NCBI GenBank assembly: GCA_045401115.1
Contig: CP174359.1
Span: forward strand, 213,691-277,690
From: Candidatus Phycocordibacter aenigmaticus
GTDB lineage: Bacteria; Patescibacteriota; Minisyncoccia; Phycocordibacterales; Phycocordibacteraceae
Length of the DNA: 64,000 bases
Reading direction: 5' to 3'
Shown here: positions 1 to 62,436 of the stretch, one piece after another
Layout: every line of letters starts with the position of its first letter
Position numbering within the stretch: position 1 is the first letter of the stretch
The notes under the pieces: generated by a model
Database searches by the model: none
Told to the model about the DNA's origin: nothing
Seen by the model: the letters and a program-made list of their open reading frames with translations, nothing else
Program-made: the position numbers and the translations under genes

Positions 1-843
1 CTTGTGCTTTCACTACAGTGCTCTCAATACGTGCTGGTTGAATACGTTGATCAACAATAAGTTTTTCAAGCGCAAGTCGGGCTACGTGGCGCCGTACAGG
101 GTCAAATGAAGAGAGGGTAATAAGTCCGGGGGTATCGTCAACCAGTACATCGACGCCAGTCGCACGTTCAAACGCGCGAATATTTCGTCCTTCACGACCA
201 ATAATTTTTCCTTTGATTTCATCGTTTGGTAGGGTAACGGAGGTAGTGAGGATGTCATTATTTACTGCGTTACCGAGTCGGTGAATTGCAGTGGTTAATA
301 TTTCTCTCGCTTTCCCTTCAAGGCGTTCTTTACCGGCAATTTCCAGTTTTTGCAAACGCACCAACATATCTTCTTCATGATGTTTTTTAACTGACTCCAA
401 GAGTGCATCACGCGCTTCACTCTCACTCATAAATGAAACGTTTGCTAATTCTTTTTCACGTTTTTTAACGAGCATTTCCGCCTGTTCTTTAATAGTACGG
501 ACTTTCTGTATTTGTTCTTTGATGCGTTCTGCTTCACGGTCAAGATCAGTTTGACGTTGATCAAGATATATTTCTTTTGCCGTGATACGTTTTTCTTTTG
601 CCGTCAGCACTTCTTCTTTTTGCTGCATCGTTTTACGGAGCTCTCCTTCAAGACGTTCCGATTTCTCTTCGGCAAGATTAAGGATGTTTTTTGCCTCTTC
701 GCGTGCGTCGAGTCGCATCTGCTTAATTTCAAGCTCAACCGACCCGCGCTGTCCGAGTGATACGAGCCAACGCAGGAAATATCCCGCTGTCATGCCCATA
801 ATCCCGACAAGAGCCAAGAGGACGAATGCTAATTTTATTGACA
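1..843 (-). CDS. rny: ribonuclease Y, N-terminal part (runs off the window start)
   Basis: Minus-strand ORF with ATG at 841-843 and no stop before position 1. It has an N-terminal TM helix, a long K/E-rich coiled coil and the KH-domain motif [15 protein letters not shown]. Confidence 0.8.
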
Positions 844-3668: not shown

Positions 3669-4592
3669 TTAGGCGCCGTCGTTGGTACCATCCTCAGTAG
3701 TTTCAGCTCCTGCTTCGAGGTTTGTTGAAACTTCAGCGGCTGCTTTGAGTTCAATAAATGCTGAGCGAAGCGCTTCATGTGCAGCACGTACACGTGCCTG
3801 TGCACTGCGCATAGCCTCACGAGTTTCACTGAATATTTCTTTAATTCGTTCACGGGTCAGTGATGCTGCATCGACAGACAATGCTACTTTAAGGTCGGCT
3901 TCAATAGCAGCAAGGTCACCTTCTGCTATTACTAATTCACTCACTGCAAGGTCAAGATATTCTTGTGCTACAGCGGTGTCACCGCCGGATTCAGCAATGA
4001 TATCAGTACGTGCTTGGAGACGTTCTGCAAGAGTATACATACGTTCTATAGCAGATCCTAAAACACGTGAGAAACGATCGAGATGGAGCTCTATACGTGC
4101 AGCAGCATCAGTGGCAACACGTTCCATAATTTCAGCACGTCGGTTTTCTTGTTCTTGCTCGCGTGTTGCTTGCTGGTCCTCAAAGGCTTCACGGCGAGTT
4201 TCGATAGTTGCACGTACTTCCGCGCGTCGGTCGGTAACGTCAATGTTTGCATTCGCATCCGCCTGTGTTTCGCGCCGTGCCTGAAGTGTTTCGATGTTTT
4301 TCTGTACTGCTTCGCGCCGTGTTTGTACTTCTTCTTTTAATAGGGTGCGTTGCTCTTCGATTCGTGCACGTGTTGCGTTTACATCAACTCTGAGTGATGC
4401 TTCTGTTTTTGCCCGGACGTTTGTGCCAGCATCATTTGGTCGTACCTGAACATCTGCATTATTGGTGGTCCGTACATCAACCCGCGCTGGTGGCTCCCGG
4501 TGTTCTTCTGCAAATACCACAGTACTGAGGAGAGTAAATGTAAGAATGATAATAAAGGTGAGAATACTGTATCGGTATATAGTGTGTGTCAT
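3669..4592 (-). CDS. hypothetical secreted or membrane-anchored coiled-coil protein
   Basis: 307 aa with an N-terminal signal/anchor (ILTFIIILTFTLLSTVVFA) followed by a long R/E/A/T-rich predicted coiled coil. Confidence 0.5.
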   Translation of the reverse strand: MTHTIYRYSILTFIIILTFTLLSTVVFAEEHREPPARVDVRTTNNADVQVRPNDAGTNVRAKTEASLRVDVNATRARIEEQRTLLKEEVQTRREAVQKNIETLQARRETQADANANIDVTDRRAEVRATIETRREAFEDQQATREQEQENRRAEIMERVATDAAARIELHLDRFSRVLGSAIERMYTLAERLQARTDIIAESGGDTAVAQEYLDLAVSELVIAEGDLAAIEADLKVALSVDAASLTRERIKEIFSETREAMRSAQARVRAAHEALRSAFIELKAAAEVSTNLEAGAETTEDGTNDGA

Positions 4593-6488: not shown

Positions 6489-6926
6489 CTATCTTATTTC
6501 TTTTGTGAAAAGTTCTTTGCACTTATAAAATGGATTTTCTTCATCACGCGCTGCAGGTTTACCAGGCGGTAGGGCAGTTATTAATGTGTAATTTAATGCA
6601 TTATATAAAATTCTAATGTAGTAGATAACCCCTTTTCGTTCTAATGGAATGGTGAGCCGACCTTCTTTTGATTGTGAGTCACACTCTTCCTTTGTGGCGA
6701 TAACTTGAGTTTTACTGCGTATTGAATCGAGTTCGCCGGGGCCAAGAACAAGCCGGCCGTAGCGCTCGTAAAGCTTTTTGCAAAAGTGCCATTCCCTTTT
6801 TGGTATGGTGCTTGTCTCTGGCCACTCAGTATTGAATGTGGTGATGGTGTCTATAGATTGTGCCGCGTCTCTTTTTTGATGAGATTGTTGGTTTTGGACG
6901 GATAATGTTCTCGGGCCACATTCCAT
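6489..6926 (-). CDS. hypothetical protein
   Basis: 145 aa ORF with its own terminator. No confident family assignment; a weak RimP-C-like pattern was not convincing. Confidence 0.4.
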   Translation of the reverse strand: MECGPRTLSVQNQQSHQKRDAAQSIDTITTFNTEWPETSTIPKREWHFCKKLYERYGRLVLGPGELDSIRSKTQVIATKEECDSQSKEGRLTIPLERKGVIYYIRILYNALNYTLITALPPGKPAARDEENPFYKCKELFTKEIR

Positions 6927-6992
6927 ATATTTATAATTAGTATTAAATATATTTATACTAATTTCAACAGATACTATTCATTTTTAGCTACA

Positions 6993-7415
6993 GTGAGCGC
7001 AATCGCACACTTGCCCTGCAAGGCGGTTTTTTATACAGTGCGTTATATGAATGATGCATCAATGAACGCATATGAAGTAGATTTTTTACGAAACGAGGCA
7101 GAAATCCATATTCGTGATACACGAACCAGATGGATGTGTGGTGTCCCCGCATTACTCCTCTTCGGCGCTCTTACTGAATTCTACTTTGATTGGATACCAG
7201 ACATTGATGCATTTAGTGCACCGTCACACATAGCTGCTCTTGCAGCACTCCTTGGCATAGGTGCATATGCGGGAGATAAGATAGGCGCCCGACATGCTCG
7301 TTCAACTGCCGCAAACATATTTAGTCAGTCTGGACCAGACGATATGGAAGTTGTTGTGCATGATGGAAATGTGTTCGGTATTTCATCAGACCATGGTGCT
7401 ATCCGTTGGCATTAA
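6993..7415 (+). CDS. hypothetical protein, possibly membrane associated
   Basis: 140 aa ORF divergent from the 6489-6926 gene across an AT-rich spacer. Confidence 0.35.
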   Translation: MSAIAHLPCKAVFYTVRYMNDASMNAYEVDFLRNEAEIHIRDTRTRWMCGVPALLLFGALTEFYFDWIPDIDAFSAPSHIAALAALLGIGAYAGDKIGARHARSTAANIFSQSGPDDMEVVVHDGNVFGISSDHGAIRWH

Positions 7416-7475: not shown

Positions 7476-9212
7476 ATGCGCGTTACTGACCAACAACTAA
7501 AACAATTTATTCTCGATTCGGGCTTAGTGTCGCGAAAAGAAATCAAATCCGCTGAGGACCATGCGGATGAAAAGGGGATGTCGCTCAAAGACGCGATCGT
7601 ATCACTCGGAGTGATTTCAGAAGATGATATACGGCGTATGCAGGCGCATATTATCGGTATTCCATTTATTTCGCTGACCGATATAAAAATAGATCCACAG
7701 GTGCTCAGTATTATTCCCGAGCCAATTGCCAGAAAACACAATATTGTTGCATTCAAAAAAACCTCCAAGGAACTTGAGGTCGCGATGCTTGATACTAATG
7801 ACTTAGCGGCTATTAACTTTATTAAAAAGAAAGTCGGTCTTAAAATTCTTCCGCGCCTTACTGACACAGCGTCACTTAAAAGCGCACTTCTGCAATATCA
7901 AAAAACACTTAAAGAAGAATTCGGCGATATTATTAAAAATGCATCTCTCTCTATTGCTGACACAACTACACTTGATGACGAGGCATTGGCGAAACTCGCA
8001 GAAGATGTGCCAGTAGTGAAAGTGGTGGATACACTACTGCGTCACGCGGTGATTCAAGGCGCATCTGATATTCATATTGAGCCAATGGAGAACCGGTTAC
8101 TTATTCGGTACCGTATTGACGGTATTTTGCATGATGCCATGGAGCTTCCGAAACATATTGCCTCAGGTGTAGTGGCGCGTATTAAGGTACTCTCTAATTT
8201 AAAGCTGGATGAAAAACGACTTCCGCAGGATGGGCGCTTTAAAATTGAAGCAGATAGCGAACGCGTCAGTTTTCGTGTGTCAGCGCTTCCGACATATTTT
8301 GGCGAGAAAGTGGTCATGCGTTTATTGAGGGAAGGTGGTGGCGGGTACACACTTGAGTCATTAGGGCTTCATGGCTCCGGACTCGAACATATTTATGATG
8401 CCACTAATCAGAAAACCGGACTTATTTTAGTAACTGGTCCGACTGGTTCAGGAAAAACTACAACGCTCTATACTGTGCTTGATATTTTAAATACACCAGA
8501 AGTTAATATTTCTACAGTAGAAGATCCAATTGAGTATCAAATGCAACGTATTAACCAAACACAGGTGCGTCCTGATATTGGTTTTACCTTTGCGCACGGA
8601 CTTCGCGCGCTTCTGCGCCAAGACCCGGACGTTATTATGGTCGGTGAGATTCGTGACACGGAAACCGCAGCGCTCTCAGTAAACGCGGCATTGACTGGTC
8701 ACGTGGTGCTTTCAACATTACATACCAACTCTGCGGCTGCTGCAATTCCACGACTTATGGATATGGAAGTGGAATCATTTCTGCTCACTTCAACATTGCG
8801 TGTCATTATCGGCCAACGTTTGGTACGAAAACTGTGTGACGAATGCGAAGCGTATACGCTTTCCAAAAAAGAAATAGACGAACTCGAGGAAATAATCGAT
8901 ACATCTCGTGTGCTCGCTGCGCTTGAGGACGAGGGGCATATTAAAAAAGGGGACACATTAGCAGACATTCCATTTTATAAAGCAAAAGAAACAGACAAGT
9001 GTCCGGATGGTTACAGTGGACGTATCGGTATTCATGAAATTCTTTCGGTGTCAGACACTACTCGTGAACTGATGTTGAAAAATGCTTCGTCTGATGAAAT
9101 AGAGGCGCAGGCAAAGAAAGAAGGCATGCTGACTATGCTTGAAGATGGCATATTTAAAGCGGCAACGGGCCTTACGACTATCGAAGAGGTGCTTCGTGTC
9201 GTGAGTGAATAA
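7476..9212 (+). CDS. pilB: type IV pilus / type II secretion assembly ATPase (PilB/GspE family)
   Basis: 578 aa with an N-terminal GSPII_E_N-like domain, Walker A GPTGSGKTTT, Asp box, Walker B, His box and a C-terminal CxxC...C...C zinc motif. Confidence 0.9.
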   Translation: MRVTDQQLKQFILDSGLVSRKEIKSAEDHADEKGMSLKDAIVSLGVISEDDIRRMQAHIIGIPFISLTDIKIDPQVLSIIPEPIARKHNIVAFKKTSKELEVAMLDTNDLAAINFIKKKVGLKILPRLTDTASLKSALLQYQKTLKEEFGDIIKNASLSIADTTTLDDEALAKLAEDVPVVKVVDTLLRHAVIQGASDIHIEPMENRLLIRYRIDGILHDAMELPKHIASGVVARIKVLSNLKLDEKRLPQDGRFKIEADSERVSFRVSALPTYFGEKVVMRLLREGGGGYTLESLGLHGSGLEHIYDATNQKTGLILVTGPTGSGKTTTLYTVLDILNTPEVNISTVEDPIEYQMQRINQTQVRPDIGFTFAHGLRALLRQDPDVIMVGEIRDTETAALSVNAALTGHVVLSTLHTNSAAAAIPRLMDMEVESFLLTSTLRVIIGQRLVRKLCDECEAYTLSKKEIDELEEIIDTSRVLAALEDEGHIKKGDTLADIPFYKAKETDKCPDGYSGRIGIHEILSVSDTTRELMLKNASSDEIEAQAKKEGMLTMLEDGIFKAATGLTTIEEVLRVVSE

Positions 9213-24229: not shown

Positions 24230-24251
24230 GGTCAACACCTGGGTGTTGACC
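24230..24251. repeat. REP-like palindrome GGTCAACACCTGGGTGTTGACC (third copy of the core flanking the RAYT gene)
   Basis: Same core as the palindromes at 33847-33886 and 34656-34689. Confidence 0.7.
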
Positions 24252-28354: not shown

Positions 28355-28365
28355 TTTAATCCGAT

Positions 28366-28400
28366 TTTCCAAAAAACACCCTCACCAGAGGGTGTTTTTT
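28366..28400 (+). terminator. rho-independent terminator after fusA (CACCCTCACCAGAGGGTG followed by T-run)
   Basis: Hairpin plus T7 run directly after the fusA stop. Confidence 0.6.
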
Positions 28401-28550
28401 GTTTTATGAGCGTATATTCGACTCGTTATATGAGGTACACACTTCTCGCATGCCTTTTTCTCAATTACGCGTAGCGGTGTGTTGTAGGGAAATTCTTTTC
28501 GCAAAAGAGGTGTATGTGAATGAATAGCGCACGGTAGCGTATTATTTTTC

Positions 28551-28579
28551 TTGCATTCCGTTGGGCTTTACCGTAGTAT
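28551..28579 (+). promoter_or_regulatory. sigma70-like promoter candidate for tuf (TTGCAT, 17 bp spacer, TAGTAT)
   Basis: Consensus-like hexamers with a 17 bp spacer lie about 100 nt upstream of tuf. Confidence 0.4.
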
Positions 28580-28682
28580 AGGTCGTAACGCTTCACGCGT
28601 GTTTTCGCTTTGCTCAACTATTGCCTCGGCGTTGGTGAGCTTTGCGCAGTTTATTCGTTATTAGTAACAATTACGTAAATAT

Positions 28683-30276: not shown

Positions 30277-30295
30277 AACACGCACAACTCTCTAA

Positions 30296-30338
30296 AAAGC
30301 AAAAACACCCCTTTCGGGGTGTTTTTGCTTTTTAGAAC
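30296..30338 (+). terminator. rho-independent terminator after rpsJ (CACCCCTTTCGGGGTG followed by T-run)
   Basis: Hairpin with a T-run. It separates rpsJ from rplC, which are normally contiguous. Confidence 0.6.
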
Positions 30339-30569
30339 CTCACGAGGTATAGTAGCGCCGTACGACACATGAAGGTCCAAAACACAGTAATCCTATAAAA
30401 GAAATTTTTTGGCTACTCATTGCTGGAGTAAAAGAGCTTCCCAAAGGTAGTACTGATAGAGTTGAAAGAGCACGTCTTATTAAAGAAGTACGTAGACGAC
30501 TGCATCATATGAATTCTGAAGATTAAACAGCGTCGGTACTGGAAAATATTTCATCAGTAAGTACGTTCC

Positions 30570-32396: not shown

Positions 32397-33260
32397 ATGG
32401 CAACAAAAAGTAAAACAAAAAACAGTAAACCAACGTCACCGGGCGTACGCGGTACCCGTACCGTGCGTTATAAAAATACGTTGACTGCGTCAAAGCCACT
32501 TAAGTCGCTGGTAAAAGGTGCGCGGAAAAATGCGGGCCGCAACAGTGCTGGGAGAATCACTGTACGTCACAAAGGTGGTGGTCATAAACGTAAACTTCGT
32601 GCAATCGATTTTCTTTTCATAGATAAAATTGGTATTCCTGGACGTGTTGAAACAGTCGAGTATGATCCACATCGTAGTGGTTTTATCGCCCGCATTGTTT
32701 ATAAAGACGGTGAACGTCGCTACATTCTTGCGCCGCAATCTATTGAAGTAGGAGCTACTGTTATTACCGCTGAAGATGCTCCTGTGAAGCCGGGTAACCG
32801 CCTCCCTCTCTCAAGTATCCCCGTGGGTACCTATGTATACAATATTGAACTTAAAGAGCGTGGTGGCGCAAAACTCGCGCGTTCAGCAGGTATGTATGCA
32901 GAACTTGTTGCGCTCGATGGTGGATATGCACAGCTGAAGATGCCGTCTTCTGAAATTCGTCGTGTGCCAGCGAAGGCATGGGCTTCAGTTGGCGAAGTAT
33001 CAAACCCTGAGCACCGATTACGTAACCTTGGTAAAGCTGGTCGTTCACGTCACCTCGGCATCCGCCCTACTGTGCGTGGTAGCGCTATGAACGCCGTTGA
33101 TCACCCACACGGTGGTGGTGAAGGAAAACAAGGTCGTGGTCACAGACGACAGCGCACCAAATGGGGTAAACCGTCAGGCAAAGGTCAAAAGACACGTACA
33201 CCAAAGAAATACTCAAACATCCACATTGTGTCTCGTCGCAAAGTCGGCAAACGCCGCTAA
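32397..33260 (+). CDS. rplB: 50S ribosomal protein L2
   Basis: 287 aa with KPTSPGVRG and the C-terminal block [33 protein letters not shown]. Confidence 0.95.
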   Translation: [287 protein letters not shown]

Positions 33261-33267
33261 CATCTTC

Positions 33268-33295
33268 AAAACACCCCTTCAACAGGGGTGTTTTT
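33268..33295 (+). terminator. rho-independent terminator after rplB
   Basis: Hairpin CACCCCTTCAACAGGGGTG followed by a T5 run. Confidence 0.6.
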
Positions 33296-33296
33296 C

Positions 33297-33555
33297 TTGA
33301 CATCCTCGATTTAGAGGCGTAGTTTGATTAAATACCTTAGTACACTTGGCTTCCTCGAACATTGGGGGACCTGAATGTGCTCCAGGTATTTAGAAAGCTA
33401 AAAACCAAATTTATGGGCATGGAATCTGAGCCTTTGGTAGGACCTTTCAGTGGTCCTAAGGCAACTAATATGACGCTCTGCGCTTCACATTTACGACCAA
33501 TACCATGTGAGTATTGTGAATAAATATTAAAAACCCGCTCTCAAGCGGGTTTTTA
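33297..33555 (+). other. mini transcription unit 1: TTGACA promoter-like hexamer, conserved ~55-nt leader, 36-codon ORF (33413-33523), terminator CCCGCTCTCAAGCGGG followed by T-run
   Basis: Tandem paralogue of unit 2. The small ORF encodes MGMESEPLVGPFSGPKATNMTLCASHLRPIPCEYCE. Confidence 0.4.
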
Positions 33556-33571
33556 ACTGCCTATGTATTAG

Positions 33572-33837
33572 TTGACATGTTTAATAAAATAATGTATTTT
33601 CCTTCAATACCTTTGATACACTTGGTTTTCTCGAACTGCTTGGGAGATCTGAATGTGTTTAAGGTGACTTACAAAAATAGATACGCATACGATTATGTCT
33701 GAACGACTTTCAAAAGGAGTGAATGATTCTCCTTCTTTCCTGCCTTTCTGGTGTGAACAATGTAGCGAATGGCACAGTGGCGGCCCTTGTAACTAATCAA
33801 GACACTTTTTTAAAACCCGCTCTCAAGCGGGTTTTTT
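33572..33837 (+). other. mini transcription unit 2: TTGACA promoter-like hexamer, conserved ~55-nt leader, 33-codon ORF (33695-33796), identical terminator
   Basis: The leader is about 80% identical to that of unit 1 over 55 nt. The small ORF encodes MSERLSKGVNDSPSFLPFWCEQCSEWHSGGPCN. Confidence 0.4.
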
Positions 33838-33846
33838 CTTACCCCC

Positions 33847-33886
33847 ATCCCTCTTGGTCAACACCCGGGTGTTGACCAAGAGGGAT
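33847..33886. repeat. REP palindrome ATCCCTCTTGGTCAACACCCGGGTGTTGACCAAGAGGGAT (40 nt, perfect)
   Basis: Flanks the 3' side of the RAYT gene. The core is shared with the copies at 34656 and 24230. Confidence 0.75.
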
Positions 33887-33950
33887 AATCTACCTTTTTC
33901 CTAGTGGACTGACATGGCTGATACGTAACCAACTGATCAAAAATCTCTTT

Positions 33951-34631
33951 TTATAACTTCGGTAGTTCATCAAGCTCTTCTTCCAGTATCTTCGCGGTTG
34001 AGGTTTCCACAAAGTCTCGGTAGTTTGAATCCGGCTCTTGTTCGAACTGCGCGGCGATGATATCGGCCTCAAGCAGGCCGCCCCAGCGGTTTGCCTCGGT
34101 AATATCCTGCAAGGAAGACCACGGGTAGTCAAAAATCTTATCTTTCCAGGTCTTCAATTCCCGTGGATTCCGATGAATATAGGCGGAAAGGTAGAGTAAG
34201 TAGTTATTGTCCGCAATATGTTTTGCTTGGAACGCGTTTTGAAATATTCTCCCCGAAGCCTCGTATTTAGTATTAAAGTACTTTGTGTAGCCGTTTCCTA
34301 CGCGTTGCATATAGCGCGCGATACCGCCCTCAACCACTTCTTTTACTATCAAATGGTAGTGGTTTGGCATAATACAGAAACTCGTCAGCTCAACCGAGCG
34401 GTTCACAATGACATCATTAGTCTCTTCAGGAGACACAGTGAACCCGTCTGAAGTGGAAAATGACTCAGTGAGCCTAGTGATATGGCTAAAGGGGATAGGT
34501 GACTGCGCATACAGCATATAGAAAAGAAACCGTGCGTAGTCTTTGTGCTCTTTAAAAAGTGTCTGCTTAAAAGCCCCGCGATTGTAAATGTGGTAGTACT
34601 CTCCTGGCGCTATGGTGCGTTGAGCCGTCAT
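33951..34631 (-). mobile_element. IS200/IS605-family Y1 (HUH) transposase of the REP-associated (RAYT) type
   Basis: Motifs GEYYHIYNRG, HUH motif MPNHYHLIV, and C-terminal NYLLYLSAYIHRNP carrying the catalytic-Tyr region. The track start at 34685 is a TTG inside the palindrome, so the ATG at 34631 is preferred. Confidence 0.75.
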
Positions 34632-34655
34632 CCACTCCAATCTATTGTATTCTGT

Positions 34656-34689
34656 CCCTTTGGTCAACACCCGGGTGTTGACCAAAGGG
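34656..34689. repeat. REP palindrome CCCTTTGGTCAACACCCGGGTGTTGACCAAAGGG (34 nt, perfect)
   Basis: Flanks the 5' side of the RAYT gene, in inverted arrangement relative to the copy at 33847. Confidence 0.75.
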
Positions 34690-34810
34690 GGTTGACGGTA
34701 GGGAGGGCGTTTGCTATTCTTGCTGCAAGCTCGAAAGGGTTCGTGATTTAACGTATTTCTTTATAAGGATTGCGTTCACGAGCCCTTTTTATTCGGGTGG
34801 TCACCTATCT

Positions 34811-35134
34811 ATGGCACGATCAATTAAAAAAGGACCCTACATCTTTTATAAACTTCTCAAGAAAATTGAGGGTAAAACTCCTGAAGAAGCAGGAACTATT
34901 AAGACGTGGGCTCGTGCCTCACAAATCAGTCCGGAAATGGTGGGATACACATTTGGGGTACACACTGGCCGGGACTTTACTGACGTATTCGTTACCGAAG
35001 AAATGGTAGGTCACCGACTCGGGGAGTTCGCTCCCACAAAGAAATTCCTCCGTCATGGTGGTCAAATGCAGAAGGCCCTCGACCAGAAGAAGAAAGAAGC
35101 AGAAATTACTGCTGCTAAAGCTGCTAAAGCCTAA
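34811..35134 (+). CDS. rpsS: 30S ribosomal protein S19
   Basis: Starts MARSIKKGPY, contains GHRLGEFAPT, and has a K/A-rich C-terminal extension. Confidence 0.9.
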   Translation: MARSIKKGPYIFYKLLKKIEGKTPEEAGTIKTWARASQISPEMVGYTFGVHTGRDFTDVFVTEEMVGHRLGEFAPTKKFLRHGGQMQKALDQKKKEAEITAAKAAKA

Positions 35135-48591: not shown

Positions 48592-48975
48592 ATGAATAAT
48601 GCGCGCCAGCAATTGGTCCTCGCTGTCGTTCTTTTAGGACTCTCTATTGCGTTTCTCCAACACCTGGCGAGCATGTACTACCTGTATTGGATATTTTGGT
48701 GGTATGACATCATTATGCATCTCCTCGGTGGTGCGTTTGTGGCACTCTTATTTTTTTGGGCGCACCGCGCTTTCCCTGTGCTACCAATGAGCCGACAGCT
48801 ACTGTTCCCGGTCACACTACTGGTAGTGCTTATTATTGGGATATTGTGGGAAGTTTTTGAGTATGTCACTGGTTCATACGGAGCGGTTAATTACACACTT
48901 GATACCACGCTTGACCTTGCTATGGATATCGCTGGTATGATGAGTGCATATATCCTTTTCAAACGTTATGTCTGA
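48592..48975 (+). CDS. small polytopic membrane protein (VanZ-like pattern)
   Basis: 127 aa with 4 TM segments and D..H...G and EVFEY motifs. Confidence 0.45.
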   Translation: MNNARQQLVLAVVLLGLSIAFLQHLASMYYLYWIFWWYDIIMHLLGGAFVALLFFWAHRAFPVLPMSRQLLFPVTLLVVLIIGILWEVFEYVTGSYGAVNYTLDTTLDLAMDIAGMMSAYILFKRYV

Positions 48976-50338
48976 TCCATCTCTTTCGGTTACCTTTGTT
49001 GGCGGCGCACGGTCTGTGACCGGCGCACATTTTCTCGTTGAATCAAAAGAAAAAGGAAACACTACACGTATAGCAGTTGATTGTGGGTTGACGCAAGGGG
49101 AGCGTTTCTGTGAATCAACCAATGGCGAACCGTTTCCGTATGATGTCGCTACGCTTGATGCGGTATTTTTTACGCATGCCCATGCCGACCACATTGGCCG
49201 GTTTCCAAAATTGGTGAAAGATGGATTTCGTGGCGATGCGTACGCAACCCCACCAACTCGTGACCTCATGCCTATTATGCTTAAAGATAGTGTGTCTATT
49301 ATGGCGCGTGAAGCGAAAAGCTGTGGTGATACGCCACCATATACACAGGAGGATATGGAACAGGCAATCGGCTTATTAAAATCTCTCGAGTATACCGAAT
49401 CAGTTTCAGTTGGAAACCTTACTATCACCTTTTATAACGCCGGACATATCCTTGGATCAGCACTTATATTAGTGGAGACCAGTGAAAAACGTATCCTCTT
49501 TACCGGCGATCTTGGGCGTGAGTCGTCACTCATCGTAGCAAACCGAGAAATACCATCGGGACCTATTGATATGTTAGTGATTGATAGTGTGTATGGGAAC
49601 CGTGTTCATAACGACAGTGAGGAAAGTGAAGCAACACTGCTTGCCACTATACGTCGCGTACAGGAGAAAAAAGGTACCTTATTAATTCCATCTTTTTCTC
49701 TTGAACGAACACAAATCATCCTCGCGTTAATTGACCGGTTTGTAGAAAGCGGTAATCTTGAACCGCTACCAGTATTTCTTGATTCGCCATTGGCAATTCA
49801 AGTCACTGAACTTTATCGGAAATATACCAAATATTTGAATCCTGAAATGCAACAACGTATCGCTGCTGGTGATGACCCGTTTTCCTTCCCTTCATTTAAA
49901 ATGCTCTATAGCGCAGAAGATTCAAAAGAGGTGGACGATACGACACCCCCTAAGGTGGTCATTGCGGGCGCAGGCATGAGTCATGGTGGGCGTATCCGTA
50001 GTCACGAGACACACTACCTCCCAGGGGCGCAAAATGAGCTCCTATTGGTCGGATATCAGGTTCCTGGTAGTTTGGGCCGTCGCCTACAGGATGGGGCGCG
50101 TACAGTCACTATTAACAAAAAGAGTGTAAAAGTACGCGCCAAGGTGTCAAAGGTTGGTGGGTTCTCAGCACATGCCGACCGTGAGGGGCTCCTTTCCTTT
50201 GTAGAGGCGGTTAATCCAAAAGCGGTATCAGTAGTACTCGGTGAAATGGAATCAGCAAGTTTTTTTGCGCAAAGGGTAAATGGATTCTTGGGTATTGAGA
50301 CAAGTATTCCTCAGGTAGGAGAGTGTTTCGAAGTCTAA
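48971..50338 (+). CDS. MBL-fold beta-CASP family hydrolase (RNase J / CPSF-like nuclease)
   Basis: Metallo-beta-lactamase motif HAHADHIG plus downstream beta-CASP motifs. About 455 aa. Confidence 0.7.
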   Translation, partial: SDPSLSVTFVGGARSVTGAHFLVESKEKGNTTRIAVDCGLTQGERFCESTNGEPFPYDVATLDAVFFTHAHADHIGRFPKLVKDGFRGDAYATPPTRDLMPIMLKDSVSIMAREAKSCGDTPPYTQEDMEQAIGLLKSLEYTESVSVGNLTITFYNAGHILGSALILVETSEKRILFTGDLGRESSLIVANREIPSGPIDMLVIDSVYGNRVHNDSEESEATLLATIRRVQEKKGTLLIPSFSLERTQIILALIDRFVESGNLEPLPVFLDSPLAIQVTELYRKYTKYLNPEMQQRIAAGDDPFSFPSFKMLYSAEDSKEVDDTTPPKVVIAGAGMSHGGRIRSHETHYLPGAQNELLLVGYQVPGSLGRRLQDGARTVTINKKSVKVRAKVSKVGGFSAHADREGLLSFVEAVNPKAVSVVLGEMESASFFAQRVNGFLGIETSIPQVGECFEV

Positions 50339-52365: not shown

Positions 52366-53033
52366 ATAGGGGCATTATAGCAGGGGAGGGAGAGCTCAAA
52401 GTAAAAATCTCAAGGACCGACCTTGAGATTTTTATTCGTTTTTCAACCACATCCGCCACCTCAAATGTTTTTTGGGTAATTTTTATTGTTAGGCTGAGTT
52501 TTTTGAAACTTGGTTCCATTCTCGCTCTTGTCGTCGTCGGTCGCGTTTTGGTGCACTCCATGGCGCTCTTTCGATTTTAGCTGCCTGGAGAATTGCACGC
52601 ACAATTGCGTGTAAGCCTTTAAAACTTACTCTGAAAGGTGTAAGAATCGCTTCACTATGAGAAGACGGGTGTGATAAGTGGTGTTTTTCTTTAATAGACA
52701 TAATTCAGTTTAAATATATTAAGTTACTCTTTAATGAGGATAATGTAACAATCTTATATTTTTGTCAAATATGGGGCGTGTATATATTTTATACACCTTC
52801 GGCGTAAAAAAGTATGGGCACCGCTGGACGCGGCTCGGCTTTTCATTTTCACCAGCAACTCAGCGAAAATGAAATATGCCTGCGACATTGTTTTGTTATG
52901 ATCGAAGGGAATTAGAAAACAAGAAGTGCCCTTGTGGTGCGCCGGTTCGTTACCCACGAAAGCAAAGCAGTTTGCTTTCTCTCACCTCCTCAATAAGAAA
53001 AACCGCCTGCCAGGCGGTTTCATTGGTGGAGGT

Positions 53034-53417
53034 GGGGGGTAACGAACCCCCGTCCAAAAAATTTCTTGCATTATGACTCTACAAAACATAGTTCGCTTTC
53101 AAAGGTTTAAATATCGTGTGTATAAAGCGAACCAAATCGCACGGTATCGAGTTCTTAATTTTCGAGAAAGAGGCGAACAATTTCTTTCCGTATCCTGATG
53201 AATATAACACCACCGTTCCCGTATCAGGAGTCAAAGAAGGTGATGTCACTTAGGCCGTAGCGTAAGCGAACTGGAAGTCCTTAGCAGTAAAGTAAGGGCT
53301 TACAGCATTTTTTACAGCGTTTGCACGTTGTAGTTACTCGAGGTTTTAGGTGTTCTCCAGTATTCACCGTTTTGCACATAATGTTTCCATTTCTTGTCGA
53401 AACGTAAGTCACCCCCC
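53034..53417 (-). ncRNA. ssrA: tmRNA (transfer-messenger RNA)
   Basis: The minus-strand 5' end GGGGGUGACUUACGUUUCGACAAG pairs with the 3' end GGACGGGGGUUCGUUACCCCCCACCUCCACCA to form a tRNA-like acceptor and T-arm. An internal tag frame ends FAYATA-UAA. It sits beside smpB and is followed by the terminator hairpin at 53008-53031. Confidence 0.8.
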
Positions 53418-53523: not shown

Positions 53524-53967
53524 TTATTGATTTTTCAAGGTGCGCTCAATGTCGCGTTTCGTATCTCGCTCTTTGAGTGTCTGTCGCTTATCATACTTCT
53601 TTTTTCGTCGCGCGACCACCACTTCAAGCTTGATTTTTCCGGATTTATTATACCACTTTTTAGGGATTACTGTCAAACCCTTCTTACGCTCTATTTCAGC
53701 GATTTCAGCAATTTCTTTTCGGTTCAACAATAAACGGCGTGGGCGCTCAGGGTCGTACCCTTTTGGCACGTTCGCAGCTTGGTACGGGGGAATAGTGGTG
53801 CCCGTAAGAAATGCCTCAGCGCCACGTACCAGCACTCGTGCACCCTCAAGGTTCCCTAAACCATTTCGGAGGGCCTTTACTTCAAAGCCGTGCAACTCAG
53901 CACCTGCTTCGAAGGTTTCGAGTATTTCATACTCGAGTGCTATTTTTTTGTTTGCAATTAATGCCAT
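53524..53967 (-). CDS. smpB: SsrA-binding protein SmpB
   Basis: 147 aa containing GFEVKALRNG and a basic C-terminal tail. Confidence 0.85.
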   Translation of the reverse strand: MALIANKKIALEYEILETFEAGAELHGFEVKALRNGLGNLEGARVLVRGAEAFLTGTTIPPYQAANVPKGYDPERPRRLLLNRKEIAEIAEIERKKGLTVIPKKWYNKSGKIKLEVVVARRKKKYDKRQTLKERDTKRDIERTLKNQ

Positions 53968-60813: not shown

Positions 60814-61641
60814 TTATTTTAATACAGCATGCAATGCGTTCACTATCTCTTCTGAGAAAGGGCTCATCCCTGGCGCGTTGTTAAATTCATTAAACATTAA
60901 GTCACCGTCTTTTGCGAAAAGAAAATCGACACCTACGATATCAAAACAACTCATTTCCCCAATTTTTTTAACGGTCGCCAATTGTTTTGCAGTCAGTGTA
61001 TAGAGGTTACAACTTGCACCATACGCAGCATTCGCTCTGAAATCCTTTTGAGAGGTTCTTTGTACTGCTAATACTGGTTTTGCTTTGATAAATGTCACCC
61101 GAAGGTCGGTTCCCATGCTGGTGGGGATAGCTTCCTGAACAAGTACCGATTTTTTCTTTAGAAGTTTTTTAAAGTAAAGGTAGTACGTGTGAAAAATATT
61201 TTTGCATAAATGTACATCTTTTCCTTGTCCGCTTGGGTATGCCTTTAAAACAAATGGAAAGCTGAGCGTGTGCGCATATCGCCACACGTCACCAATGGAC
61301 TGCACTCTGAAGGTGCGCGGCACTTGAACGTTGTGATTACGAACGAGTTCATATGACGCTGCTTTATCAGCGGGGCGCACATCGCCATAAGTACGGTAAT
61401 CATTGATAATATGCGTCGTTTGATAGTGTGCGCTATTTTCGATATGTGCTAATACATCTTCTTTTTTGGATGGTATGTCTCTAAAATAAGGCCAGAGAAT
61501 ATCAGCTTCTGGTTTCTTTTTTAAAAATTGCTTAGCGGTGAGTGTGGTGACTAAAAACCCCTTTTTTGTAAAAGCGTCTAAATCATTTTGCTTTAGGTGC
61601 GGTGACCTGTTGTTTGCATATATAATGACCAGTGTTTTCAT
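60814..61641 (-). CDS. ATP-grasp family ligase (RimK/GshB-like)
   Basis: About 275 aa with an ATP-grasp pattern (VLKAYPSGQGKDVHL, VLVQEAIP, DLRVTFI, DFLFAKDGDLMFNEFNNAPG). The start is taken at MKTLVIIY (61641). Confidence 0.6.
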   Translation of the reverse strand: MKTLVIIYANNRSPHLKQNDLDAFTKKGFLVTTLTAKQFLKKKPEADILWPYFRDIPSKKEDVLAHIENSAHYQTTHIINDYRTYGDVRPADKAASYELVRNHNVQVPRTFRVQSIGDVWRYAHTLSFPFVLKAYPSGQGKDVHLCKNIFHTYYLYFKKLLKKKSVLVQEAIPTSMGTDLRVTFIKAKPVLAVQRTSQKDFRANAAYGASCNLYTLTAKQLATVKKIGEMSCFDIVGVDFLFAKDGDLMFNEFNNAPGMSPFSEEIVNALHAVLK

Positions 61642-61647
61642 ATACCT

Positions 61648-62436
61648 ATGGATAATACTACGCTTGCGAATGAAATGTCTTGGCATGTCTACTATAGCGA
61701 TAATGGACCTGCCGGCGATGGGGATTCTGAAAAAACGAGAGTGCGTGAATGCACTGCTCAAATAGTGCAGGATCACTTGTTAAATCATGTCTCAAGTGCC
61801 GCCGGCCGCACTCTTCAGGGGCAGCCAGAAAAAGGAAAGATTATTCTAGAGAATTTTTTATATGACGTATCCCAAGCAAGTGCATTAAACATTACGCTCA
61901 CTCCGGATTTATTTGATTCATATCTCCCCAGTCGGCCAGAAATACGTGATGGGTTGAGACAAGAATTGCTCGATAGATATCCTGAAGTACACACACTAAA
62001 CGATATTGATTTTTGGAAAGAAGTTGAACACGTATTACATCTTAAAAATGTTTCTTATATGAAACTGCGCGCGTACGTGTTGGGGCACGACTTTAACCTC
62101 TCTCATATTGATGGCCCTGTTGCGATGCCGCTTTCAAAATATAATTATCCTCAAAGTCGCGCTTCAAAGGAAGATTCGTATGCACTCAGGGGGCTTAACT
62201 ACCATTTAGCAGCAGTACCGTTTTTATATACCCATAAGAATATACAGCAATTTTTTACTACTGACGGAGCACAACGCACACTTACCTGTGATGATCTAAA
62301 ACGAGAACGTGACGAAACACTCAAACGCCGGGAGCGCTTTTGGAAAAAACTGGTAGGTACTGCAACCCCATCACCGGAGGTACTCAAAGAAGCAATAACT
62401 GGTACCGATGAGTTTAGTAAATATATAGAAGTTTGA
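61648..62436 (+). CDS. hypothetical protein
   Basis: 262 aa soluble ORF divergent from the ATP-grasp gene with only 6 bp between their start codons. Confidence 0.4.
   Translation: MDNTTLANEMSWHVYYSDNGPAGDGDSEKTRVRECTAQIVQDHLLNHVSSAAGRTLQGQPEKGKIILENFLYDVSQASALNITLTPDLFDSYLPSRPEIRDGLRQELLDRYPEVHTLNDIDFWKEVEHVLHLKNVSYMKLRAYVLGHDFNLSHIDGPVAMPLSKYNYPQSRASKEDSYALRGLNYHLAAVPFLYTHKNIQQFFTTDGAQRTLTCDDLKRERDETLKRRERFWKKLVGTATPSPEVLKEAITGTDEFSKYIEV

Follow-up and report, generated by a model that had tools for sequence, protein, structure and literature searches.

Leader hairpins that are processed by RNase III are exemplified by those of the rnc and pnp messages and by the R1.1-type sites of phage T7. 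Other 5'-terminal stem-loops stabilize the transcripts that carry them, as in the ompA and papA leaders of Escherichia coli and the aprE and ermC-type leaders of Bacillus subtilis, and base pairing at the 5' end hinders the entry of RppH, RNase E and RNase J (review PMC3997798). Putative mobile promoters (PMPs), for their part, are upstream regions that share at least 80% identity in an alignment longer than 50 nt, whereas the coding sequences on either side of them, downstream and upstream, are not homologous; most families have two members (Matus-Garcia, Nijveen & van Passel 2012, PMC3488235). Here, we describe two tandem mini transcription units that lie between the ribosomal protein genes rplB and rpsS in a 64-kb stretch of the genome of Candidatus Phycocordibacter aenigmaticus (contig CP174359.1, positions 213,691 to 277,690; hereafter the window, meaning the whole stretch). 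Their shared leader matches no Rfam family; it is akin both to modules in which a promoter and its leader are reused and to leaders that form a 5' stem-loop, but the way in which it is conserved is unusual. We conclude that the promoter plus leader (in the closest strain also the terminator stem), rather than the encoded peptide, is the conserved unit, because the same leader precedes unrelated, Cys-less open reading frames (ORFs) in two other lineages of Paceibacteria.

The sequence-only reading of the window had proposed two autonomous promoter-to-terminator units, and these are borne out, at 33297-33555 and 33572-33837 (Table 1). Sites of the form TTGAC(A/G/T)-16..18-TAnnnT number only about ten in the 64 kb, both strands included. 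The terminators, which had been called identical, share a 24-nt core, AAAACCCGCTCTCAAGCGGGTTTT, that occurs exactly twice (33530-33553 and 33812-33835; 0 occurrences expected by chance). On alignment of the two units, the hexamers, the leader (82-84%) and the terminator (100%) are alike, whereas the ~140-nt middles are unlike, with no similarity above that of shuffled sequences (global alignment, z 0.2; local alignment, z -0.4). The leader had been credited with some 80% identity: this is right for the aligned columns, drops to 77% when the comparison is trimmed to the helix, and takes in a 19-nt core, ACACTTGGYTTYCTCGAAC, found only at these two sites (~0 expected by chance in 64 kb). Similarity limited to the promoter would, it had been argued, betray simple promoter duplication; the similarity is certainly confined, to the hexamers, leader and terminator, but it cannot be put down to a duplicated promoter alone, since the leader forms a real RNA structure that has been conserved. 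The promoter hexamers are kept in all four copies of the module that we found (see below), and the spacer between them is not conserved (random level). Conserved hexamers, hairpin and terminator, set against a random-level spacer and middles, bear the signature of selection on functional elements rather than of recent duplication.

The conserved 5' part had been described as structured, and it proves to be a long imperfect hairpin of ~58 nt, which folds as the RNA of the plus strand and whose pairing is kept in the four copies. The calculated RNA fold is -24.0 kcal/mol for unit 1 (z -4.1) and -21.2 kcal/mol for unit 2 (z -4.7), as against -15.2 kcal/mol (z -1.6) and -8.5 kcal/mol (z -1.8) for the respective reverse complements, the minus-strand fold being weak because six of the helix pairs are G-U. 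With DNA parameters, the leader reaches -3 to -7 kcal/mol on either strand, no better than shuffled sequence; these folds and the six invariant G-U pairs disfavour a DNA palindrome or cruciform, or a single-stranded DNA site. The constant features of the helix are a C/A mismatch, a pyrimidine-pyrimidine mismatch and the invariant G-U pairs, and the apical loop is variable. The compensatory change that had been cited for the closing helix (ACCT/AGGT versus ACCTT/AAGGT) is merely one added outer pair, but real double changes between the two window copies do exist inside the helix, namely, G-C to A-U and C-G to U-A. A peptide, GDLNV, is encoded in frame in both leaders; a loop indel shifts the upstream frames, and the conservation is, therefore, of nucleotides and not of protein. 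The -10 hexamers end at 33325 and 33600 and the hairpins start at 33330 and 33608, that is, 5-8 nt downstream, where transcription is expected to start; because the helix begins at this point, the predicted mRNA would have essentially no unpaired 5' end. The covariance-model scan of the leader that had been suggested found no family at gathering or permissive thresholds: Rfam 15, at its gathering threshold over the whole window, returned only the transfer-messenger RNA (tmRNA) and two tRNAs, with no leader family, and a permissive scan of 33200-34900 gave sub-threshold matches from the terminators only (best 29 bits versus a threshold of 54).

Further copies in related genomes had also been proposed as a check. 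Relatives were reached only through homologues of ribosomal protein L2 and exact-protein look-ups, and candidate copies were scored by covariance model; L-numbers such as L058 denote the relatives' loci, drawn from GTDB, JGI, ENA and Logan. A third and a fourth copy were found in L058 and L075, both directly downstream of rplB, with scores of 66-89 and 62-87 bits, respectively (89.9 bits for unit 1 and 78.2 for unit 2). L058, together with L059, represents a sister strain whose L2 is 98% identical, and whose ribosomal protein DNA is 89.6-90.5% identical, to those of the window. It has the same promoter and hairpin at the same position, followed by an unrelated ORF, X1 (59 aa, basic, G/K/R-rich, no Cys), and a terminator with the same CCCGC/GCGGG stem as in the window and another loop. 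Beyond X1 come a hairpin-less second unit (X2, 70 aa, basic), the conserved terminator, a repetitive extragenic palindromic (REP) element and the gene for a REP-associated tyrosine transposase (RAYT). From 4550 on, L058 aligns with the window from 33812 on; between the rplB stop and the last terminator, the hairpin is the only part of the two loci that aligns. In L075, where L2 is 80% and rplB DNA 72.4% identical to the window, the promoter and hairpin lie just 3' of rplB, ahead of an unrelated ORF, Y1 (41 aa, no Cys), and a different terminator.

Over 58 nt, any two of the hairpins of unit 1, L058 and L075 share 89.7% identity, most differences falling in the apical loop, and the helix is thus better conserved than the DNA of rplB (89.7% versus 72.4% between the window and L075). 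In the four-copy alignment, 23 pairs are standard in 92/92 cells; three pairs have changed in a compensatory and three in a one-sided manner, and six are invariant G-U. Controls with slid partners were paired in 21-59% of cells, with 0-1 compensations. The window, scanned without filters, yielded no more copies, nor did a further 62 loci (392 kb in all), and several close relatives have no hairpin; weak and isolated covariance-model matches in L070 (~16-20 bits) were rejected, the one at 7623-7714 lying inside a coding gene. A gapped leader pattern gave 0 matches in the GTDB species genomes, JGI metagenomes and IMG/VR, as did two further patterns in IMG/VR. The L2 of the window is 100% identical to that of 'Patescibacteria group bacterium UBA2163', and marine metagenomes, the run ERR599124 among them, contain contigs of this organism; the Logan contig L001 is identical to the window and adds no independent information. 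Two side observations concern these relatives. The X2 unit of the sister strain (L058 4319-4531) has a promoter-like site ~10 nt before the ATG, making it near-leaderless, and a basic, disordered-looking product, and a similar leaderless-type promoter stands before a 151-aa membrane ORF in L067 (5949-5986). In L075, a consensus promoter (TTGACA-16-TATAAT) and the ~70 nt after it (6908-6998) lie directly upstream of the hairpin unit's own promoter, and may represent a small RNA.

Whatever follows the leader is very probably translated, to judge from the layout of the units. The short ORFs of the sequence-only reading, at 33413-33523 (P1) and 33695-33796 (P2), read as it had quoted them. Each of the four units has its first ATG 23-28 nt past the hairpin, across a spacer of 71-92% A+T, and from this ATG an ORF of 36, 33, 59 or 41 codons runs to a stop 5-24 nt short of the terminator (5 nt for P1). 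The probabilities of this layout in dinucleotide shuffles are 0.044, 0.035, 0.0037 and 0.014, with a product of ~8e-8; the thresholds were set after seeing the data, albeit with a large margin. Neither P1 nor P2 has a Shine-Dalgarno (SD) sequence, which is normal here because genuine genes of the window also lack one (starts at, e.g. 28683, 32397, 34811 and 35150); the organism apparently starts translation without SD pairing, and the bases right before the ATG tend to t-a-t in A/T-rich surroundings. An alternative ORF of 50 aa that follows AAGGAG (33723-33875) was discarded: it runs through the terminator into a REP, and the organism does not use SD sequences.

The peptides themselves show no kinship. 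No pairwise similarity was seen among P1, P2, X1, Y1 and X2 (z <= 2.2), BLASTP of P1 against P2 gave no match, and the peptides have no match in Pfam, NCBIfam, PHROGs or PADLOC; word-index searches with extended versions of P1 and P2 produced no candidates, and, among the 15 billion proteins of one collection, X1 and Y1 each stand as a singleton. The proposed paralogous, diversifying peptide family is consequently not upheld: the middles and the peptides lack similarity above shuffles, and elsewhere the leader precedes Cys-less ORFs. With P2 as the query, phmmer matched three repeat proteins among 1.84 billion representatives, two with WQDxGGxWHxGGP propeller-type repeats and one other tandem-repeat protein matching around CEQC; these scores sum weak repeat matches with no single significant stretch, and are attributed to chance, as is the match of P2 in the PDB to the lectin CV39L (6gxs), whose score is likewise summed over repeats. 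Residues 6-32 of P2 do resemble one blade repeat of the PLL/CV39L type (G-x-N-D-...-W-Q-D-x-G-G-x-W-H-x-G-G-P), as seen in the database matches P0001 and P0003 and in 6gxs, but this likeness, too, gains significance only when repeats are summed, and is put down to chance.

Table 1. Positions of the two mini transcription units and of neighbouring elements in the window.
Feature	Coordinates	Strand	Remarks
Unit 1 promoter	33297-33325	+	TTGACA, 17 nt, TAGTTT (33320-33325)
Unit 1 leader hairpin	33330-33391	+	~23-26 pairs with conserved mismatches; begins at predicted transcript start
ORF P1	33413-33523	+	36 aa, MGMESEPLVGPFSGPKATNMTLCASHLRPIPCEYCE; acidic; C-x2-H-x5-C-x2-C at C-terminus
Unit 1 intrinsic terminator	33529-33555	+	AAAAACCCGC TCTCAA GCGGGTTTTT; bidirectional in form
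Unit 2 promoter	33572-33600	+	TTGACA, 17 nt, TATTTT (33595-33600); 10/12 consensus matches in promoter scan
Unit 2 leader hairpin	33608-33666	+	Divergent paralogue; identity of 72-77% with each of the other copies
ORF P2	33695-33796	+	33 aa, MSERLSKGVNDSPSFLPFWCEQCSEWHSGGPCN; acidic; C-x2-C-x3-H-x4-C
Unit 2 intrinsic terminator	33812-33837	+	Core identical to unit 1; its orthologue in the sister strain is the RAYT-proximal terminator
rplB intrinsic terminator	33271-33297	+	ACACCCC-loop-GGGGTGT plus T-run; stem 33275-33288; ends upstream ribosomal protein transcription unit
REP hairpin	33849-33884		Flanks 3' end of RAYT gene
RAYT-like Y1 (HUH) transposase gene	33951-34631	-	226 aa from probable ATG at 34631; longest ORF to 34685
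Second REP hairpin	34656-34689		Flanks 5' end of RAYT gene
rpsS promoter and leader hairpin	34692-34800	+	TTGACG, 17 nt, TATTCT; ribosomal protein operon restarts past the cargo slot

Compared with PMPs, the module is alike in that a promoter-bearing segment of more than 50 nt, ~80-90% identical, stands ahead of non-homologous coding sequences, and in that the family is small. The identity of 89.7% over 58 nt among unit 1, L058 and L075 lies above the PMP alignment limit, and that of units 1 and 2 is borderline (77-84%, according to the ends used); the downstream ORFs are unrelated, and the gene that precedes the module is P1 in the case of unit 2, but rplB in those of unit 1, L058 and L075. 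In two respects it differs. The window, L058 and L075 copies are syntenic, 3' of rplB, so that the module looks resident and the ORF exchanged; moreover, conservation resides here mainly in an RNA hairpin that is transcribed and shows covariation, and does not extend to the promoter spacer. With the 5'-terminal stabilizers, the leader would have in common a hairpin at, or ~0-3 nt from, the predicted 5' end, followed by an unstructured ribosome-loading region, and a gene for a beta-CASP/RMMBL ribonuclease (RNase J/CPSF type) is present in the window, at 48944-50338. However, the known stabilizers need structure and not sequence, whereas here sequence conservation is ~90% (72% for rplB DNA) and specific mismatches are kept, which implies an additional, specific partner. 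The likeness to the RNase III-processed leaders is one of form: a long imperfect duplex, spanning at least two helical turns (~23-26 pairs) and having symmetric internal mismatches and a variable apical loop, would stand at the start of the mRNA, although the substrate rules derive from E. coli and may not transfer to Patescibacteria.

We favour, with moderate confidence, an account in which these are independently transcribed micro-protein genes that share a sequence-constrained 5'-terminal RNA leader and occupy a hypervariable slot beside the RAYT gene. In each unit, a strong sigma-70-type promoter would give rise to a transcript that opens with the ~58-nt imperfect stem-loop; this would be followed by 23-28 nt of A/U-rich, unstructured sequence, the first ATG, an ORF of 33 or 36 codons and the intrinsic terminator. 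The ORFs would be lineage-specific, exchangeable cargo behind a resident promoter and stem-loop, the exchange possibly occurring by recombination between dispersed copies or with the involvement of the RAYT. The stem-loop presumably acts in cis on its mRNA: leaving almost no unpaired 5' nucleotides, it may shield these short, SD-less messages from 5'-end-dependent decay. Additionally, because its sequence is so strongly conserved, mismatches and G-U pairs included, we propose a specific trans-acting reader of the stem, candidates being a double-stranded RNA-binding protein, an RNase III-type enzyme or a ribosomal protein, and such a reader would place different micro-genes under common post-transcriptional control.

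Several observations weigh against this account. The transcription start is taken from promoter geometry alone, and a generic 5' stabilizer would not require ~90% sequence conservation, so that the mechanism is incomplete. In codon usage, P1 scores +2.8 and P2 -4.5, well under typical genes (17.4 +/- 8.5), which fits young or foreign cargo but is also a caveat, and neither ORF had been called by any gene caller in the 15-billion-protein collection. The 100% identity of both window terminators, loop included, exceeds what terminator function needs. With four copies in three lineages only, the covariation evidence is modest, and a shuffle control, known to be lenient, equalled the observed score in 5/500 runs; we consider the covariation across these four sequences to be supportive but not conclusive.

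The units could instead produce noncoding small RNAs, the hairpin being the functional domain (a protein sponge or a processed stable RNA), the body an unconstrained tail and the ORFs incidental. The hairpin alone is conserved, beyond the level of rplB, the bodies are unrelated, and P1 and P2 have atypical codon usage and no homologues, all of which would suit such RNAs; an unconstrained tail, however, would not be expected to hold the A/U-rich interval of 23-28 nt between hairpin and ATG, or to be filled by a first-ATG ORF in each of four units at the joint shuffle probability given above, and we regard this explanation as unlikely. Equally attentive to the hairpin is the proposal that it serves as an operator for a ribosomal protein or translation factor, through rRNA mimicry, and so couples the slot to the ribosomal protein operons. 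The L058, L075 and window copies do lie immediately 3' of rplB inside the S10 cluster, and conservation above that of rplB, with internal mismatches and G-U pairs kept, is what a protein-binding helix would show, recognition then having to be through the stem because the apical loop is variable. Yet the regulated genes would be unrelated orphan micro-ORFs and not ribosomal protein genes, there is no match to an Rfam ribosomal protein leader, and several close relatives lack the hairpin, which makes the operator quite improbable. A DNA-level role, with the leader and terminator hairpins as sites of integron-like cassette exchange by the HUH RAYT or by homologous recombination among dispersed copies, would account for an orthologous leader with non-homologous ORFs in strains whose L2 is 98% identical, for window terminators that are 100% identical despite unrelated bodies and share their CCCGC/GCGGG stem with L058, and for the RAYT found in all three hairpin-bearing lineages. 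Against it, neither strand of the leader, as single-stranded DNA, folds more stably than shuffled sequence does, the leader is unlike the REP hairpins that flank the RAYT gene and is placed exactly between a conserved promoter and an ORF, and the RAYT is present in relatives without the hairpin or without cargo; we judge such a role very improbable. A related but more ambitious proposal, that a fixed expression platform beside a domesticated RAYT constitutes an undescribed micro-gene cassette slot with one dedicated helix-reading factor, would have unrelated or newborn micro-ORFs swapped between the conserved 5' hairpin and the terminator hairpin, possibly in a RAYT-mediated or hairpin-guided manner; to this we would assign only a small probability.

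The remaining explanations turn on the peptides. Each of P1 and P2 has three Cys and one His in its last 13-14 residues, and both contain C-E-x-C; the proteome frequency of Cys is 0.41%, and a shuffled ORF would have three Cys and one His in its last 14 residues with a probability of 2e-4 (P1) or 5e-5 (P2), although these statistics are post hoc. Single-sequence AlphaFold2 (AF2) models, moderately confident overall, give a predicted local distance difference test (pLDDT) score of 77-80 over the C-terminal part of P1 and, for P2, a beta-hairpin (18-20/25-27) around the CxxC, with a pLDDT of about 85 over residues 21-30. A paralogous, diversifying family of Cys/His micropeptides (zinc-binding or toxin-like), served by the 5' structure, could draw on these matching ends, rare in shuffles, and on AF2 models that are most confident (77-85) where the Cys and His residues lie and that give P2 a knuckle-like beta-hairpin. 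P1 and P2 are, however, dissimilar, with unlike ligand order, the same leader also precedes Cys-free ORFs of 59 (basic) and 41 aa, no Pfam zinc finger is matched at E<=10, and the peptides are hydrophilic, unlike membrane toxins; such a family we consider improbable. Type I toxin-antitoxin modules, or precursors of ribosomally synthesized and post-translationally modified peptides (RiPPs) or bacteriocins, would be in keeping with small tandem ORFs behind structured 5' UTRs in an accessory slot, with the Cys-rich C-termini of P1 and P2, and with the toxin-antitoxin-like pairs (DUF4258 with DUF2283; HepT-like with Polbeta-like domain) that often fill the slot in relatives. The toxin-like reading of the peptides is nevertheless not supported, in view of their hydrophilicity (grand average of hydropathicity of -0.10 for P1 and -0.66 for P2, isoelectric point of about 5, no transmembrane segment) and of the lack of a minus-strand promoter across the units, 33297-33842, in consensus scans. 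A RiPP is opposed by the lack of a conserved leader peptide, the N-terminal parts not being conserved, and by the absence of a maturase or exporter (radical SAM, Lan, peptidase-ABC) from a Pfam scan of the larger window ORFs outside the ribosomal protein cluster. The only ATP-grasp gene, for a RimK-like ligase (60814-61776), is 27 kb away from the mini-units, and the earlier statement that no modification enzyme is adjacent therefore stands, the neighbours being ribosomal protein genes and the RAYT gene. With no PADLOC or PHROGs match either, we find these toxin-antitoxin and RiPP explanations exceedingly improbable.

Zinc binding by the individual peptides is a separate matter. Small zinc-finger micro-proteins include the haloarchaeal CPxCG proteins such as Brz (PMC2253796), and there are also the retroviral-type CCHC knuckles. 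P1 and P2 resemble them in being under 40 aa with four potential ligands each. The ligand order differs between the two, and neither C-x2-H-x5-C-x2-C (P1) nor C-x2-C-x3-H-x4-C (P2) equals the C-x2-C-x4-H-x4-C of zf-CCHC, from which P2 is one residue short. They differ further in having a single cluster rather than two CPxCG pairs and in being acidic, not basic, and no Pfam or NCBIfam family, zinc fingers included, is matched even at E<=10; X1 and Y1, behind the same leader, have no ligand cluster. Foldseek against the PDB found nothing at E<5 for P1 or P2, the non-significant matches of P2 being mostly zinc fingers, and no convincing Cys-rich small ORF was seen in the spacers of relatives. That P1 and P2 individually bind zinc is plausible, though we would rate it as clearly less than an even prospect, and zinc binding would not be a family property because X1 and Y1 lack Cys.

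The units lie in a locus that is itself variable. The rplB stop is at 33260, and is followed by the rplB terminator and then by the two plus-strand units. The str/S10 cluster is split into separate transcription units, and intrinsic terminators of one style (AAACACCCC-loop-GGGGTGTTT) stand after fusA, rpsJ and rplB (28384-28402, 30300-30332 and 33271-33297). In relatives, an analogous promoter and a short GCTC...GAGC hairpin precede rpsS. The earlier view of the rplB-rpsS spacer as a place where genes would not be expected does not hold in this clade: the spacer, 4-15 bp in distant taxa, here ranges from 45 to about 2,900 bp, with cargo that may be a DUF4258 and DUF2283 pair, a HepT-like ORF beside a Polbeta-like-domain protein, pyruvate kinase, membrane proteins or, in some relatives, nothing. 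On our best reading, the mini-units sit in a hypervariable cargo slot that is bounded on one side by the rplB terminator and on the other by a long-resident RAYT gene. Other occupants of the site include a near-perfect palindrome of ~130 nt in L009 (~3990-4150), whose right arm holds the rpsS promoter and which resembles an insertion of the miniature inverted-repeat transposable element type, and small RNA-like units in L003 and L008 that consist of a promoter and a long hairpin.

REP/RAYT systems have been described by Nunvar 2010 (PMC2817692) and Bertels 2017 (PMC5581495), and the neighbouring transposase appears to be a divergent member: it has a Y1 domain, flanking REPs and a REP copy elsewhere. 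Its translation contains HYH and YIHRNP motifs and scores 31.5 bits against Pfam Y1_Tnp (cutoff 23) and 39.8 bits, under the cutoff of 80, against the NCBIfam equivalog REP_Tyr_transpos. A RAYT gene is found at the equivalent rplB-rpsS site in L002, L058, L065, L067 and L075. Like a domesticated RAYT, it is a single-copy Y1/HUH transposase with its own REP hairpins at one locus across lineages; the mini-units, in contrast, are not REPs, since their hairpins are unrelated to the REP sequence, are stable as RNA only and lie inside promoter-to-terminator units. The REP core, GGTCAACACC(C/T)GGGTGTTGACC, has three copies in the window (24230-24251, 33856-33877 and 34662-34683), of which the latter two flank the RAYT gene. 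The third, at 24230, lies beside a TTGACA-16-TATTTT promoter (24166), just 3' of a divergent SpoU-type methylase gene, and precedes the gene cluster that contains rpsL.

The regulatory RNAs and small proteins of Patescibacteria (the candidate phyla radiation) are almost unexplored, and here a leader has changed less than the gene of a core ribosomal protein, while the micro-ORF that follows has been replaced, even among strains whose L2 sequences share 98% identity. Should the leader stabilize or gate SD-less mini-mRNAs, as the favoured account of micro-protein genes behind a shared RNA leader would have it, it would offer a handle on post-transcriptional control in unculturable organisms, and could serve as a portable expression element. 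The locus would, moreover, be a natural case for the turnover or birth of micro-protein genes at a fixed site that is predicted to be strongly expressed. Were it merely a promoter-leader duplication with orphan ORFs, it would be a modest addition to the known reused promoters.

A few minor observations concern the surroundings. Past the right end of the window, L071 (1-7000) holds a redox and metal cluster (DsbD, thioredoxin/DsbA-like, glutaredoxin-like, cupredoxin-like, ferric-reductase and CsoR-like metal-repressor genes) with no evident link to the Cys-rich peptides. The rpsJ-rplC (30277-30569) and fusA-tuf (28355-28682) spacers are unusually long, at about 300 nt, and genes of 40-57 aa are called there in relatives (L058 846-1001, L062 2590-2721 and L067 884-1006); these spacers may be further micro-gene or small RNA slots. 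Finally, the tmRNA gene is on the minus strand at 53024-53416 (Rfam RF00023, 105.6 bits), with a TTGACA-18-TATAAT promoter ~260 nt upstream, at 53676.

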